Positions 15,201-21,200 of a stretch of 64,000 nt of DNA are shown piece by piece. The stretch is from Escherichia coli (GTDB lineage: Bacteria; Pseudomonadota; Gammaproteobacteria; Enterobacterales; Enterobacteriaceae): the NCBI RefSeq assembly GCF_044324785.1, contig NZ_CP172128.1; one strand, given 5' to 3'. A program made the position numbers. Position 1 is the stretch's first letter, and each line of letters starts with the position of its first letter.

Positions 15201-18200
15201 AGACCGCTGCGAACGTAACGGTGCTGCCTGAGCCACTTTTGTGCGCCTTCTGTTTTGATGACCCGGATAAAGGCGTTTCTGGCCAGTGAATACACCGGCG
15301 TGCTGAAACGCCCCTGGTCCCGTTTACTTTTGAGCCTGCAGGAGAGATTGAGGTTGTTCATCAGGGCTACCGCTGCTTTCCGGTCACCGAGGAAGAACTG
15401 TAGGCCAAAGATGGCAAAGAGCGCTTTTTCATGTGGGGCCATGTCTTTCCAGCTGGTCAGTGGTTGCCCCAGTTGCGCCATGAAGCACTGGCGTGTGGAC
15501 GCAACATCGAGCTGCATGTTGCGGATAAGGTTGTTCTGCTCCACAAAGGCTTCGGGGGTTAGAGCGACACGGCGCTCGGGACGTTTTTGTCCGTGGAAGA
15601 GTCTGTTGCTGTCTCCGTCAGCCAGAACGGGGGCGATAGCCGGTGACAGTGATGAAAACAGATGTGGCAGCGTGTGGATATTCAGTGGTCTGCGGGTGAA
15701 GCGGGGCTGGGCCGGATGCTGAAACCACATCCACAGAAAGCCGATCGTCATGGGAAGCAGAATCAGCCAGAGGATCCCCACGGTCTGTGACATGACATCC
15801 AGCCACTGGCTGAAAGTGATCGTTGCAGCGTTGTTGGCGGTGTTGGCCAGCAGGTTATAACGGGGGGCGGCAAAATGGTGAAAAGGCCCCCAGTCAGTCA
15901 TCCCCCACATTGTGTGCAGGATCAGGCAGGTGGCAAAGACGATGTCGGGTAAAAAGAGCCAGATGAGAAGCGCAAAGAGCAGACATATGGTGCCAACGAT
16001 ATACCATATGTTCATCGGGTCTTCTGTTGTGGGGGAGTGTTGGTAAGACACGAGGATTCCTCCATCGATAAATAGATAAATTTCGGGATGAGGCTGAGTG
16101 GAATTAATGCGAACAATCGCCGGTAATGACCGGGCAGGGATGAAATAACCAGGGTATTTTCACAGGAACAGCAGAAGGCAGTGAGAGACAGGCACAAAAA
16201 AACCGACTGGTGAGGTCGGTTTTTTTGCTATTCCGGGGCGGAGTTGGTGACTCTGACCGAAAGGGAAATCACTCTACATCTAACACCATCATAGTAGGCT
16301 GCGCTTCTCTTTTTTGCAATCAGAAAAATGACTATAATCGCTCCGTTAGCTCTGTCTGGTGATGCTTCTGCCCTTTAATAAAATATGCTCAGGTTAAAAA
16401 CCGAAAACCTTCCTGCACTTCCTGCGCCTGTTCCCGTGAGTCAAACATGAGCCGGCTTTTACCCGGAACCCCCAGGAAATATATTCTACATCCACCCACT
16501 ATTTTCCGTATTCTTCATACGGTCCGGATATCACTTTAGTGACAAATGCATCAACCAGGTTCATTTTTACACCTTTCTGTTATTTTTGCTTATTACGACC
16601 AGCAGACAGCAAATATTAAAAATAACGCGGCGGTAAAAATGGCAATTTTTTCCCATACTGTATTTTTTCCATTTATTTGCTTTGAAATGTTTTTTTGCTT
16701 CATATCAGTAAATGATTATTTTTTATTCTGTTTCCTCCAGACCCATGGTGGCACCGGATTTTCATCTGCCCATAATCCCCGTTTAAGGGCACGGGCATCG
16801 CGCTGGAGAGCCGGGAGAGTATAGTCCTTGTTGTAGTCCGGGTATACCCAGGCCGCTCCCTTCCTGATTTGCTCACGATTCGCTTCAGTGCCGTCAGCGG
16901 TATAGACTCTGCCGAGAATACGGTTATATCTGTCGGTCTGTAAGTATTGTACGGTTACAGGCTTACCGGCCACCAGGTCTTTTAACTGAGAGGCAGACCA
17001 GCGTCCAAAGGGCTGTTTCTTTTCCGGTGCATCAATATTTGCCAGGCGGACCCTGACAGTTTTTTTATCCTGTAATATTTCCAGTGTATCACCATCAAGA
17101 ACGCGGATAACGTTTCCCTGAATCTGTGCAGCGCAGAGGGAACCTGAAAAAATAATAGCGAGAGAGAACATATATTTTATCATTTTATTACATCCTTTTT
17201 TATTCATGAAAAACAGGCGGCGTTTATATTACGGAATAATATCGTTAAGTTGAGTTTATGTTTCCGGTAATGTAATGCTTCACGCAGAGCATGAATTCCA
17301 GTAGGCTAATATTCATGATGATATAGTAACAGATATCCGGTGACAGTATGCAGGAACATATTGATTATCAGATTGAGAAATATCAGTTCAGGGCCAGGAA
17401 TGAGTCTCCGCGACTGATGCGCCAGTGGGCAGATGTCATGCGTGAATGCCGTGATACCGGAGCAGGAGCCAGGGAGCGGCTGCGGATTGCCTTACTTAAT
17501 GTTGATTATGTGACCAGTTTTGAACTGCCGTTTCGTCTGCTGTTAACCCGGACACCGCAGATGATTGACAGCGTGCGGCGGGAATGGCAGCTCAGCCAGA
17601 AAAAAGTCGTATTCAATGAGCGGCAGCGGGGATGTGTATACAGTCTGCAGAATGACTTATCCGGCGTGCCGGATAGCTTCAGTTACAGTCTTGCGACGCG
17701 AATACGGCGGGTGGACAGCTATGGCATGACGACGCGTTGTTTCACTGATATAGCCGGGCAGGTTAAAGCCCCGACAGCACGGCTGAAACTGGCGCTGGAA
17801 AGCGGGTTAATTGTCACCGCGCTGGATGGTCTGTTCTGGCTTGGTATTCAGCGTATTGCCGCAGATGTGCAGCGGCTGCGTCAGTCCGGAATGACAATCA
17901 TCACCCGGGATGTTGAGGTCTCAGACTCGCTGACCGGAACCACACGGGTTGTTTCCGGGTACAGCCTTTGATTTATGCAACAAAGTATCGCAGCGTCGAA
18001 TATGAGCTATGGCCAGATTTTTGTTAATCGTGGTTGTTGCAACATGTAAGGCGAATGACCACACTATTCTGGTACGCTCGTAATCACGCTGAAATTCTGC
18101 TTCCTGTCCTGCCGTGATGAGTTCCGACCAGGACATACGGCGAAGTGTATGTCTGTCAGTAATATCCGTCATGAGCTCTCAGCCTCCTCCTTCGTATTTC

Positions 18201-21200
18201 CGTCAGAAACACAAACGCCCCGCAGAGAAAATTCGCCAACATTCTCCTTTTTAATGGCGCGCAATGCATCGCGGCAGGCCCGTTCGGTATGAAAGGCCTG
18301 GCTGTGCACCGCCAGTGTGGGCTGACGGGCATCACCGGAAGAGACATTAAAGGGCGATGAAAGCCAGAAAATCAGTAGCCACATGCGTCACACCTCGTCC
18401 TTTTTATGCGGGTATCTGGACAGAATATTGAGCGCCTGTAATGGCGCTTCATGCATTTCACGGATACAACGGGCATCGGTGATATTTTCCCGGTAATGTG
18501 TGGTTTCCAGCATCATATGATGCATATGGAGCATCCGGGCCAGGGCTGCGCGGAGTTCTTCAATATGTTGTTCATGGGAATGCTGGCGGGGCTGTATCCG
18601 GCAGAGAGGGATAACCTCCACATCATCCGGGTGCGCGCGAAGCCACGCGTCAGTGACTGCAATGTCGTCAGTGTAAAACCATGTGCCGGATGTCCCGTTG
18701 GCCAGAAAACGCATTTTCCAGGCTTCTGGGGTGGCGGTTGTGTTGTTATCTTTCATGGTGCCACCACTCATTCAACAGGCTTAATGCTGTCCAGGCGCAG
18801 TCTGCTCAGACTGTCGTGGCTGCCACAGCGGCGTCCGGTGCTTTTGCTGTAGCACTCCTGCCCCCTGATACACCATGCCGTTGGCGTTTCGTAGAGGCTG
18901 ACACGTCGGGTTTTATCTTTAATGATGAGAAGCCCGGTGTGAGTTTTTGTCTTTTTCATCGGTGGGGTACAAACGCAGAAATTTTGTTGTCATTACATCA
19001 TCAGTTTTAGCCTGCAGAGACGCTGAAAAATCAGCGTTTTCAGACCCTGTTCAGGTTAGTGAATATTCTTGCCTGGCCTTTCGGCAATATCAATCCCCTG
19101 GAGTTGCATGGATATGCCCATACCGTTGACCATGAGGCTGTTTATGGACTGAACACCACATTTCATCATGAGCTCAAAACACAGTGCGCTGAGCATGCCG
19201 AGCGCCTCTTCTGAGGACTGGCAGTGTGTATTCAAAAGAGTATTGAACTGTTTAACGATATCCGGGGTGAGGCACATACTTTGTATTTCGTCTTTCATGA
19301 CTACTCCTTATTTCAGGCATTTTGCATTTTGGGTTAATAACACGAAGCCCGTAGACGGAAAACCTGAGGCGTTCGGATGGGATAATTCCCGGGTATTTTC
19401 CTGTTCCGGATACAAAAAATATAACGGCATGAAAAGGATTGTGGCGGACAGGAAAACAATTAGAATAGCTGCGGGCGCTTGAGGCTGTATGCCGAAAGCG
19501 TTTTGTGGACGGCATGCAGCAGAAAGCCCCAGGCGATCTTTTTATCAATCAACCCAGGGCCCACTGTAATGCCTCAACAACATTATAGTAGCCCGATGAC
19601 GGCCGAAAGGCAATGGAGGGGCTGCGATGCCACAACGAACGTTTTTAATAATGTTAATCGTCGTCTGTGTGACGATACTGTGTTTTGTCTGGATGGTGAG
19701 GGATTCGCTTTGCGGATTTCGTATCGAGCAGGGAAATACGGTGCTTGTGGCAACGTTAGCCTACGAAGTTAAACGTTAACGGGCAACACGGCGGCAGGAC
19801 ATCTGCCGCCGGATTGTTGCGAAGGCTGACCTCAATGCGCCTTGTTTGTCTTTTTTACCGGACGATGGATCCCACTCCTCCTCATCAGTTCGTAGCAGAG
19901 TGTACTCAGCATGGCAAGTGCAGCTTCTGATGATTTACAGTGTGTATTCAGGAGGGTAAGAAATTGTTTAAAAACATCAGGGTTTATACTGGTGCTTTGA
20001 TATTCGTTACTCATAGTATTTCCTTTCAGGTCATTATTACTTCCGGATTTAACATGATGTCTGTAACCATAAAATAATGAACGTGTTCCGGGAGTCCTTG
20101 CCGTGTAGTTTCCCGTAAAAATACTGTTGTGCATTACATGTCATTAGGTGGAAACCGATTGTGGCAGACTGAAAATCGATTAGAATAGCGGCGGGCGCTT
20201 GAGGCTGTATGCTGAAAGCGTTTTGTGGACGGCATGCAGCAGAAAGCCCCAGGCGATTTTTTTATCAATCAACCCAGGGCTCTACTGTAATGCATCGACA
20301 ACATTATAGTAGCCCGATGACGGCCGAAAGGCAATGGAGGGGCTGCGATGCCACAACGAACGTTTTTAATAATGTTAATCGTCGTCTGTGTGACGATACT
20401 GTGTTTTGTCTGGATGGTGAGGGATTCGCTTTGCGGATTCCGTGTCGAGCAGGGAAACACAGTGCTTGTGGCAACGTTAGCCTACGAAGTTAAACGTTAA
20501 CGGGCAACACGGCGGCAGGAAATCTGCCGCCGGATTGTTGCGAAAGCAAACCTCAATGCGCCCTTTTTTACCTGGATTTCTGCAGCGCGTTTCAGCATAG
20601 CATGCAGTTCTGTGCTGATCCTTGCTTCCAGTCGGGCAGTTTGTGTTGCAGATGGCATGATTTGTACTTCCTGAATATACTGAACGGCAAATTGCCGTAT
20701 TGTGCTAATTACAGTCTGATACAGGGACGGCAGACAGGCATTCTGCCTGAAAAGAAAAAGCCGGTTCAGAGAAAACCGGCTGACGGATTACCGTCTAACA
20801 GTTGGTCGCTACCTTACAATACTTCTGCAACAGGCACACCGGCAACTTTTTCCCATTCTTTAACCCGATACCGAATCATCTGCGGGAAACGCTCTTTGTA
20901 CTCATATCCACGTGCAGCCATGGTGTGCATGGTGTTGGCCAGCGTCCTTGCTGAGATGCCGGAGATTTCAAGAGGGATCATCGGCAGACTCACATAGGTG
21001 GTGTGGATTTCCAGCTTGCCGTCTTCAGCAACTGTTCGGGTGAAGTTGTGAATATCCAGACCAATCACATCCATGACATTGTTTGGGTAAATGCGCACAT
21101 ACAGCATGGTGCCGTTTTTAATGTCGATCCCGAAATAGCAACTCTTCGAGAATGACAGTTGCTCGTAATCGCTGGTCGGCGCAAAGGGACTGCTTTCTTT

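Follow-up and report, generated by a model that had tools for sequence, protein, structure and literature searches.

The trbA-excA junction of an Escherichia coli I-complex plasmid very probably holds the native inter-operon region of the IncB/O/K/Z branch

The stretch of DNA analysed here (the window) comprises 64,000 nucleotides of contig NZ_CP172128.1 from Escherichia coli (assembly GCF_044324785.1), and its source is a conjugative plasmid of the I-complex (MPF_I, MOBP). Between trbA and excA lies a block, positions 16052-20813, which contains a staphylococcal-nuclease-type (SNase-type) gene, a gene for a protein of 207 amino acids (aa), an operon of small genes, and two hok/sok-type (pnd) modules. 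An earlier reading of the sequence (the original prediction) had listed these features, and every item of that list was found in its place (Table 1). By comparison with sequenced relatives, the block very probably represents the region that the IncB/O/K/Z members of the I-complex plasmids natively have between their two transfer operons, mostly inherited and not newly inserted. The block was 100% identical to four deposited plasmids from chicken E. coli (pLH10-b-1-A and three of the pE32 type), all of them typed IncK2/Z. TrbA shared 77% protein identity with TrbA of R64, and trbB-trbA shared 96.5% nucleotide identity with pCT; the tra genes of the window are of the B/O/K/Z type.

Table 1. Positions of the features of the block, of its flanks, and of the rest of the window (ORF, open reading frame; sRNA, small RNA; UTR, untranslated region; IS, insertion sequence; PGAP, Prokaryotic Genome Annotation Pipeline).
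Feature	Position	Strand	Remarks
trbA	14789-16051	-	Left flank of the block
AgrB-like antitoxin sRNA gene	16194-16283	-	Rfam RF02891 AgrB, full-length model, 50.4 bits (gathering 40)
dqlB deletion scar	16284-16372		dqlB 5'UTR and ORF gone; resumes in 3' half of dqlB terminator (CTTCTGCCCTTTAA)
Putative sigma-70 promoter of AgrB-like sRNA	16291-16319	-	Read from sequence
58-aa ORF remnant, frameshifted	16389-16564	-	Intact in R64, R621a, pCT, p1_020022
36-aa hydrophobic small ORF	16593-16703	-	MKQKNISKQINGKNTVWEKIAIFTAALFLIFAVCWS; unannotated
SNase-type (thermonuclease family) gene	16716-17207	-	PGAP start 17183, 155 aa
207-aa ECs1377-family winged-helix protein gene	17348-17971	+	Divergent from nuclease gene
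Five-gene small operon	17921-19298	-	Gaps 96, 11, 3, -4 nt
80-aa gene	19056-19298	-	
63-aa gene	18768-18959	-	
122-aa gene	18388-18756	-	
71-aa gene	18169-18384	-	
83-aa ANR-like ORF	17921-18172	-	Unannotated; fifth gene of small operon
hok/sok-type (pnd) module 1	19431-19847	+	
Module 1 hok promoter -10 TAGAAT	19461-19466	+	
Module 1 mRNA 5' tac element	19473-19484	+	
Module 1 mok/pndC-like overlapping frame	From 19569 or 19596 to 19772	+	
Module 1 antisense -10 TATAAT	19587-19582	-	
Module 1 Hok/PndA ORF	19627-19779	+	
Module 1 3' fbi element	19830-19841	+	
Inter-hok spacer, 303 nt	19848-20150	-	5' part of second, diverged 80-aa gene copy; start 20014; mechanical ORF 19832-20134
hok/sok-type (pnd) module 2	20151-20568	+	Tandem copy
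Module 2 tac element	20193-20204	+	
Module 2 antisense -10	20308-20303	-	
Module 2 Hok ORF	20348-20500	+	
Module 2 fbi element	20551-20562	+	
53-aa ORF, TacA-type antitoxin N-terminal remnant	20497-20658	-	Right after hok module 2
excA intrinsic terminator	20759-20781	-	Terminator scan; end of traE...traY-excA operon
excA	20814-21458	-	Right flank of the block
traY	21545-23710	-	traX beyond
trbB	13668-14792	-	
trbC	11414-13687	-	
mazE/mazF	1518-2110		
IS3 element, ALIL frameshift pseudoknot match	2702-2788		
IS21/IS100 istAB	4209-6010		
STAXI RNA motif	6366-6523	-	
IS3 transposase	8156-9384		
astA/EAST1 enterotoxin	10633-10746		

The junction was compared with those of R64, ColIb-P9, and R621a. 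According to the original prediction, excA is followed directly by trbA in R64, which proved untrue in the three plasmids alike, their spacers measuring 2.3-3.7 kb. The trbA-excA spacer of R64 (2.27 kb, 74709-76982) holds hok/pnd, an 83-aa ORF, an AgrB-like sRNA, dqlB, a 58-aa ORF, and a 69-aa ORF named "HEAT"; that of ColIb-P9 (2.5 kb) holds hok and small ORFs, and that of R621a has the R64 set plus finQ, dqlB being annotated in the spacers of R64 and R621a. The presence of pnd inside the R64 trbABC transfer region is the finding given in the title of Furuya and Komano (1996, J Bacteriol 178:1491), cited in PMC10286972. The two hok modules of the window, which had been counted as cargo, were 90% (module 1) and 91% (module 2) identical in nucleotides to R64 pnd over about 410 nt; because the R64 spacer already carries hok/pnd, they are shared junction content and not cargo.

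The supposed difference in gene content from these three plasmids was real. The thermonuclease gene, the 207-aa gene, and the small operon were found at the junction in none of them, and block proteins gave no tblastn match at E≤0.01 in the complete 120.8-kb R64 sequence. When the window was mapped by blastn on the R64 junction, 16196-16372 corresponded to the AgrB-like region (72%), 16364-16667 to the 58-aa-ORF region (73%), and both hok modules to pnd; the part with the nuclease, the 207-aa gene, and the small operon (16668-19431) had no R64 counterpart. The order of the modules was trbA-pnd-...-agrB-dqlB-...-excA in R64, versus trbA-agrB-...-pnd-pnd-excA in the window. Read from these maps, the segment running from the nuclease to the 80-aa gene (about 2.8 kb) is lineage-specific relative to IncI1 plasmids, and the hok and agrB parts are common to IncI1 and the window, in different order.

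Reference plasmids with the same gene content at this junction were named in the original prediction as what would refute it. The same content in the same order was found in references of the appropriate lineage, pCT (IncK) and p5312.29, the latter being the IncK2 prototype of Seiffert et al. 2017 (PMC5350095). The series in pCT (NC_014477) is trbA-agrB-dqlB-58aa-SNase-(IS21)-HTH-71-122-63-80-hok-TnsA-like-excA, in which HTH is the ECs1377-family helix-turn-helix gene and the 63-aa gene, unannotated, was located by tblastn; p5312.29 (KR905385) has the same gene series without IS21. Both plasmids share with the window the trbA and excA flanks and the order of AgrB-like sRNA, 58-aa ORF, SNase-type nuclease, HTH gene, the 71-, 122-, 63-, and 80-aa genes, and hok. 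The HTH, 71-, 122-, and 63-aa proteins of the window were 97.5-100% identical to those of both plasmids, the 80-aa protein 99% identical in p5312.29 and 70% in pCT, and the nuclease 90% identical to both alleles. The window differs from them in the loss of dqlB, in the frameshift of the 58-aa ORF, and in the addition of a second, mosaic hok module, and it has neither the IS21 insertion nor the TnsA-like gene of pCT. The block is also present in Shigella sonnei pR15.1832_104k, in p1_020022, and in pL889_NDM9. Among the 72,556 plasmids of PLSDB, trbB-trbA of the window type was found in 485 and reached ≥90% identity in 475 of these; the HTH/small-gene segment was present in whole or in part in 496 (at least 80% of its length in 355), and at least 80% of the whole block in 340.

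We detected no transposase or integrase ORF in 16052-20813, nor terminal inverted repeats or a target duplication; the repeat search over 15800-21600 returned the hok tandem and chance matches of 17-30 nt at low identity. Because the same site is occupied in the same way in relatives and no mobile-element signature was detected, the block is taken as the normal junction content of its lineage. What had been proposed as a rearrangement or an accessory insertion in this plasmid is, instead, a lineage-level backbone difference, the same block being present in pCT, p5312.29, and hundreds more. The space between the excA terminator and the region upstream of trbABC would behave as a recombination-tolerant slot which gathers maintenance and accessory modules.

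Several observations weigh against such a plain account of inheritance. The G+C content of the block was 0.48, and that of 16052-16715 was 0.42, versus 0.55 in trbCBA, which would fit a foreign origin at an earlier time; the G+C of excA itself was also 0.42. There is mosaicism, too, since the nuclease allele stands at 90% in pCT and p5312.29 versus 97.5-100% for the neighbouring HTH and small genes, with the exception of the 80-aa gene in pCT (70%). The gene order is changed in pH2332-107, where a SPATE (serine protease autotransporter) protease and a phosphoethanolamine transferase are interleaved. Among relatives the junction varies in IS21, in TnsA-like genes, in one or two copies of hok, and in the presence of dqlB. 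Considering the allele mosaicism and the altered order with interleaved cargo in pH2332-107, the slot appears to be actively remodelled, and "backbone" is here a matter of degree.

The nuclease matched the SNase chains of the PDB by phmmer (E 1.6e-10, residues 24-142). The alignment matched D21, R35, D40, E43, R87, and Y85/Y113/Y115, with the motifs DGDT, R..IDAPE, and DRY.R. It also matched PHROG 452 (endonuclease) at 2e-18 and NCBIfam NucI at 2e-11, below cutoff; because its scores were far under the cutoffs of the NCBIfam equivalogs NucI and EcnA, it is a member of the SNase family and neither of the named enzymes. Membership in a defence system was considered and rejected: in PADLOC the nuclease matched a generic SNc domain model, and the other proteins gave nothing. 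Judged by eye, the N-terminus is hydrophobic and resembles a signal peptide (MIKYMFSLAIIFSGSLCAA, followed by Q). With an intact catalytic set and such a signal, the enzyme would probably be exported and degrade nucleic acid outside the cytoplasm.

The original prediction also placed nuc elsewhere in R64. This is correct as regards the position, between sog and traK, but not as regards the gene: nuc of R64, like that of R621a, is annotated as a phospholipase D (PLD) family protein. R64 Nuc gave nothing by tblastn in the window at E≤0.01, and the window nuclease gave nothing in the whole of R64. The PLD-superfamily Nuc of IncI1 R64 and IncN pKM101 resembles the nuclease of the window in being a small nuclease of a plasmid transfer region, with a complementary distribution in the plasmids examined; it differs in fold and sequence, which are unrelated, and in its locus (sog-traK), and it is not an orthologue. 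PLD-type Nuc is an exported protein. In the window, sog (38814-42875) and traK/traJ (about 42948-44374) are contiguous, without the PLD-family nuc found there in IncI1 and IncI-gamma plasmids. In pCT the sog-traK interval is the insertion site of ISEcp1-blaCTX-M-14, and the PLD gene was absent from the 25-76 kb region of that plasmid.

Both types of nuclease are frequent on enterobacterial conjugative plasmids, with more than 5,000 records each. The SNase homologues of conjugative plasmids include Nuc of pSa and ParB of RP4. In IncF plasmids the SNase-type gene immediately follows an ANR-family gene at the distal tra end, with finO on one side and repA2 on the other, and it occurs in IncI2 as well; in the IncF plasmid pEC545_3 (stretch positions 3044-4217) its neighbours are the gene of an ANR-family regulator and hha, finO lying upstream. 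The window has a loose counterpart of this ANR-nuclease neighbourhood: its ANR-like ORF is about 740 bp away from the nuclease gene, and the HTH gene stands in between. With the homologues of IncF, IncI2, and other plasmids the nuclease of the window shares the family with its conserved catalytic residues, the N-terminal export signal (here by eye), and 54-70% identity. It differs from them in its site between two MPF_I transfer operons and in its divergent ECs1377-family neighbour, none being seen in the IncF and IncI2 contexts.

Taking into account these two nuclease types, it may be proposed that a non-orthologous displacement took place, in which the B/O/K/Z branch lost the PLD-type Nuc and keeps an exported SNase because MPF_I conjugation or establishment benefits from it, the block being tied to transfer. 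We consider this unlikely. It agrees with R64 (complete sequence) and R621a (30-70 kb) having the PLD gene and no SNase, and with the window and pCT (25-76 kb) having the SNase and no PLD gene; about 1,326 records of PLD homologues were found at ≥95% identity and almost none at 80-95%, the band expected for a B/O/K/Z orthologue. The SNase-type genes of the distal IncF tra end, of IncI2, and of the many other conjugative plasmids mentioned above also speak for it. However, nuc of IncI1 is dispensable for transfer, and the complementary distribution concerns a handful of plasmids checked in full. A TraDIS (transposon-directed insertion-site sequencing) screen of an I-complex plasmid, moreover, has no nuclease among the conjugation and maintenance genes (PMC10286972). 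A wider form of the proposal, in which the SNase replaces PLD Nuc, MPF_I plasmids are selected for an extracytoplasmic nuclease, and the ECs1377-family gene with the small operon makes up its regulatory or accessory unit, seems to us rather improbable.

The 207-aa protein scored 301 bits with NCBIfam ECs1377_fam (cutoff 190) and matched Pfam HTH_39 at its C-terminus. Its structure model was confident, and the structure search returned only generic winged-helix neighbours; this DNA-binding protein is probably a local regulator. The first four genes of the small operon are coding sequences in the PGAP annotation of pE32-3. The 71-aa protein matched PHROG 3766 and the 63-aa protein PHROG 1226, both families of unknown function. 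In Pfam, the 63-, 71-, and 122-aa proteins gave nothing even at E≤10, and the 80-aa protein gave one chance match (E 0.07); the 80-, 63-, 122-, and 71-aa proteins had no match in NCBIfam or in PADLOC, and the 122-aa protein none in PHROG either. For this last protein 45 homologues were found, all the source-named ones from E. coli, a set too shallow for a useful structure prediction.

The fifth gene of the operon, the 83-aa ORF, shares 4 nt (ATGA) with the stop of the 71-aa gene and 51 nt with the 3' end of the 207-aa gene, which is convergent with it, an arrangement which points to translational coupling with the 71-aa gene. It was intact in all the relatives examined, in one of them at 54% identity. 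Its only NCBIfam match was a weak one to the ANR model NF033650 (cutoff 32 bits), at 16.2 bits (E 0.007), whereas a chromosomal homologue, 91% identical, reached 25.3 bits (E 1e-5) and a bona fide IncF ANR protein 40. Homologues of this ORF are annotated in a chromosomal copy and in pH2332-107, where the annotated gene overlaps the tblastn match, and not in the closely related plasmid records.

A recent cargo islet, inserted into an IncI1-like excA-trbA junction of this plasmid from a phage or a chromosomal island, would also account for a segment without counterpart in R64, ColIb-P9, and R621a (16668-19431), for the PHROG matches of several of its proteins, and for the low G+C of the left part. 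The chromosome of E. coli AVS0969 (stretch positions 9001-10613), moreover, carries an about 90% identical 3' end of the 207-aa gene and small operon, in an IS-rich island beside iha (adhesin/siderophore receptor). However, essentially every plasmid of this trbA type has the same genes at the same junction, among them references whose sequences date from 2011 and 2017, and neither a flanking recombinase nor inverted repeats or a target duplication was detected. The chromosomal copies are truncated among IS fragments and look plasmid-derived rather than like a source; in 5,426 E. coli genomes, 3,878 chromosomal sites matched part of the query, mostly distant ECs1377-family genes. As for phages, a search of 50,697 phage records returned nothing for 17208-19430 at the nucleotide level, and at the protein level a single tblastn match, between the HTH protein and an Erwinia phage. 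The islet is largely refuted by the synteny survey, and we hold it for very improbable. A transfer of the IncI1 nuc from sog-traK to the excA-trbA junction, suggested by the window having no nuclease between sog and traK/traJ and one at the junction, is practically discarded, because the PLD-type and SNase-type genes are unrelated and no tblastn match was found either way.

The two hok modules are tandem copies, 92-96% identical and spaced 720-721 nt in the repeat search. Each includes a full-length match to Rfam sok RF01794 (19473-19629 with 123.4 bits and 20193-20350 with 119.7 bits; gathering 59) and a 50-aa toxin ORF, 90% identical to the R64 Hok/Gef (pnd) protein. Both ORFs matched PHROG 251 at 2e-14 and bear the PGAP name Hok/Gef; with NCBIfam HokA they reached 66 bits, under the equivalog cutoff of 89. 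In each module there is a TAGAAT -10 hexamer, and the fbi element CCTCAATGCGCC (from 19830 and 20551) complements the start of the mRNA, the tac element GGGCGCTTGAGG (from 19473 and 20193), about 360 nt upstream, with a predicted pairing of 11 bp and one bulge. The overlapping mok-type frame of module 2 ends at 20493. On the antisense strand both modules have a perfect TATAAT, with TTGCCT, 20 nt away, as the sole -35-like hexamer. Both modules, R64, and pCT retain the tac/fbi pair and the antisense TATAAT. As members of this family, both would act by post-segregational killing: a stable hok mRNA would be held folded through the 5'-3' pairing of tac and fbi, a short-lived antisense RNA would stop translation of the overlapping mok/pndC frame, and plasmid-free daughter cells would produce the 50-aa membrane toxin.

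These features (family, tac/fbi, mok-type overlapping frame, and a putative antisense promoter) are those of pnd of IncI1 R64 and R483 and of IncB R16, and in R64 the site is inter-operon too. The window differs from R64 in having two tandem copies instead of one, and in that they lie on the excA side of the spacer and not on the trbA side; the small partner gene, of an 80-84 aa family, is upstream and divergent in the window, versus downstream and convergent in R64. In the spacer gene copy about 54 of the 80 codons could be aligned before it is cut off at the repeat boundary, with the C-terminus replaced after GIH. It was about 52% identical to the complete 80-aa gene by alignment (60% over the first 50 residues by tblastn) and closest to the pH2332-107 allele. 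Since this second copy is diverged and truncated, the hok duplication reads as mosaic, and it probably arose by unequal recombination between two different plasmids.

The AgrB RF02891 match near trbA has a counterpart in the corresponding position of R64, pCT, p5312.29, and p1_020022. The 90-nt AgrB-like RNA folds at -28.3 kcal/mol (z -4.4). The hairpin 16196-16227 had been predicted as a bidirectional terminator, and it is indeed symmetric (A7-CCGAC-loop-GTCGG-T7), with -19.3 kcal/mol (z -3.5) on the + strand and -19.1 (z -4.0) on the - strand; from its position it would be the 3' terminator of the AgrB-like sRNA. The putative promoter of the sRNA consists of a -35 TTGCAA (16319-16314), a 17-nt spacer, and a -10 TACTAT (16296-16291), with +1 about 7 nt downstream at 16283, and the hexamers are kept in position in R64 (TTGCTA/TATTAT) and pCT (TTGCAG/TATTAT).

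The AgrB-like sRNA adjoins dqlB in R64, pCT, and R621a. DqlB-agrB is an experimentally validated addiction module on pOXA-48 (2025, PMC12365149), and dqlB is carried by 83% of IncB/O/K/Z and 67% of IncI1 plasmids (PMC12365149). In the window, a three-way alignment with p1_020022 and R64 together with the blastn map against R64 located the deletion scar, and no DqlB-like ORF was found in the 64 kb (best tblastn E 0.28-1, which is noise). Compared with the dqlB-agrB system of pOXA-48 and the chromosomal dinQ-agrB of E. coli, the window has the AgrB-like sRNA, its promoter, and its terminator, in the same position as in the dqlB-bearing R64 and pCT, and differs in having neither the toxin gene nor the 5'UTR. 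The locus is a remnant, an orphan antitoxin RNA without its toxin gene, and what survives of this decayed module beside trbA is the sRNA gene, promoter, and terminator; because the toxin gene is deleted, the dql module of the window would no longer kill. In p1_020022 and p5312.29 there is a different deletion, which fuses the sRNA region to a shortened, 27-aa dqlB, so the dql module seems to be decaying by several routes within IncK2.

As a side possibility, the orphan sRNA could serve as an anti-addiction factor against DqlB of competing plasmids. Cross-neutralisation of other dqlB mRNAs was explored with RNAduplex on the leaders of R64, pCT, and R621a, and found no support, the duplexes being no better than shuffled ones: -51 and -58 kcal/mol with the R64 and pCT leaders, for a shuffled mean of about -49 (sd 4.5), versus -72 and -74 for cognate pairs. 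The "leader" taken from p1_020022 overlapped its own agrB gene, hence it was uninformative. Next to the scar, the 58-aa ORF has a 1-nt deletion relative to p1_020022 and R64 (GGAAC-CCCCAGG), which splits it into 21 and 36 aa, seen as two frames in tblastn. The separate 36-aa ORF is conserved as a protein in R64 and ColIb-P9 (50%), pCT (63%), and p5312.29 (92%) and had no family match in the protein-family scans; it is a putative gene, possibly for a small membrane peptide.

On the excA side, the 53-aa ORF matched positions 1-23 of the 80 of Pfam TacA1 PF08681 (E 4.8e-4), and no GNAT toxin ORF adjoins it; it is a remnant and no complete TacA antitoxin. The label given to this ORF is hypothetical in p5312.29 and "antitoxin" in CP070396. 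A hypothetical gene adjacent to hok/sok has been associated with chicken IncK2 plasmids (PMC12987596), and the 53-aa ORF may be that gene. UUUUUCUUUU follows the hairpin of the excA terminator, which has -22.2 kcal/mol (z -6.4). Mapped against pL889_NDM9, the window is without a 500-bp segment that holds the 69-aa "HEAT" ORF, which stands beside excA in pL889_NDM9, p5312.29, p1_020022, and the IncI1 references. Upstream of that ORF, pL889_NDM9 has a 115-bp remnant copy of the excA 3' end (the comparison concerns 10761-11375 of the pL889_NDM9 stretch and 20814-20928 of the window), and recombination of this remnant with the true 3' end of excA apparently caused the loss. Over the remainder of excA-traY-traX-traW, identity to pL889_NDM9 was only about 92.7%, versus 98.9% to the left; this drop suggests that recombination broke at the stop codon of excA, which fits an exchange of entry-exclusion alleles.

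Elsewhere in the window, the relaxase gene ends at 1449 (by tblastn) and about 10 kb of IS-rich cargo (1450-11413) extends up to trbC; in pCT the relaxase-trbC distance is only about 220 bp. The truly recent insertion of the window is this region and not the trbA-excA block.

The block has been sequenced many times as the typical junction of IncB/O/K/Z plasmids, and what is mildly new here concerns annotation only: the AgrB-like sRNA left as an orphan, the mosaic duplication of hok, and the ANR-like gene without annotation. For annotation, the gain lies in an orphan AgrB-like RNA that is not shown in PGAP-based records, in a conserved and unannotated ANR-like fifth gene of the small operon, and in the recognition that the genes called "nuc" in IncI1 and in the window encode unrelated enzymes. 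In I-complex plasmids the space between trbA and excA is always occupied, and the pnd killer locus is known to reside there; the set of genes at this junction marks the IncB/O/K/Z branch and is no new acquisition, and its nuclease, winged-helix, and small genes are carried by hundreds of resistance plasmids.

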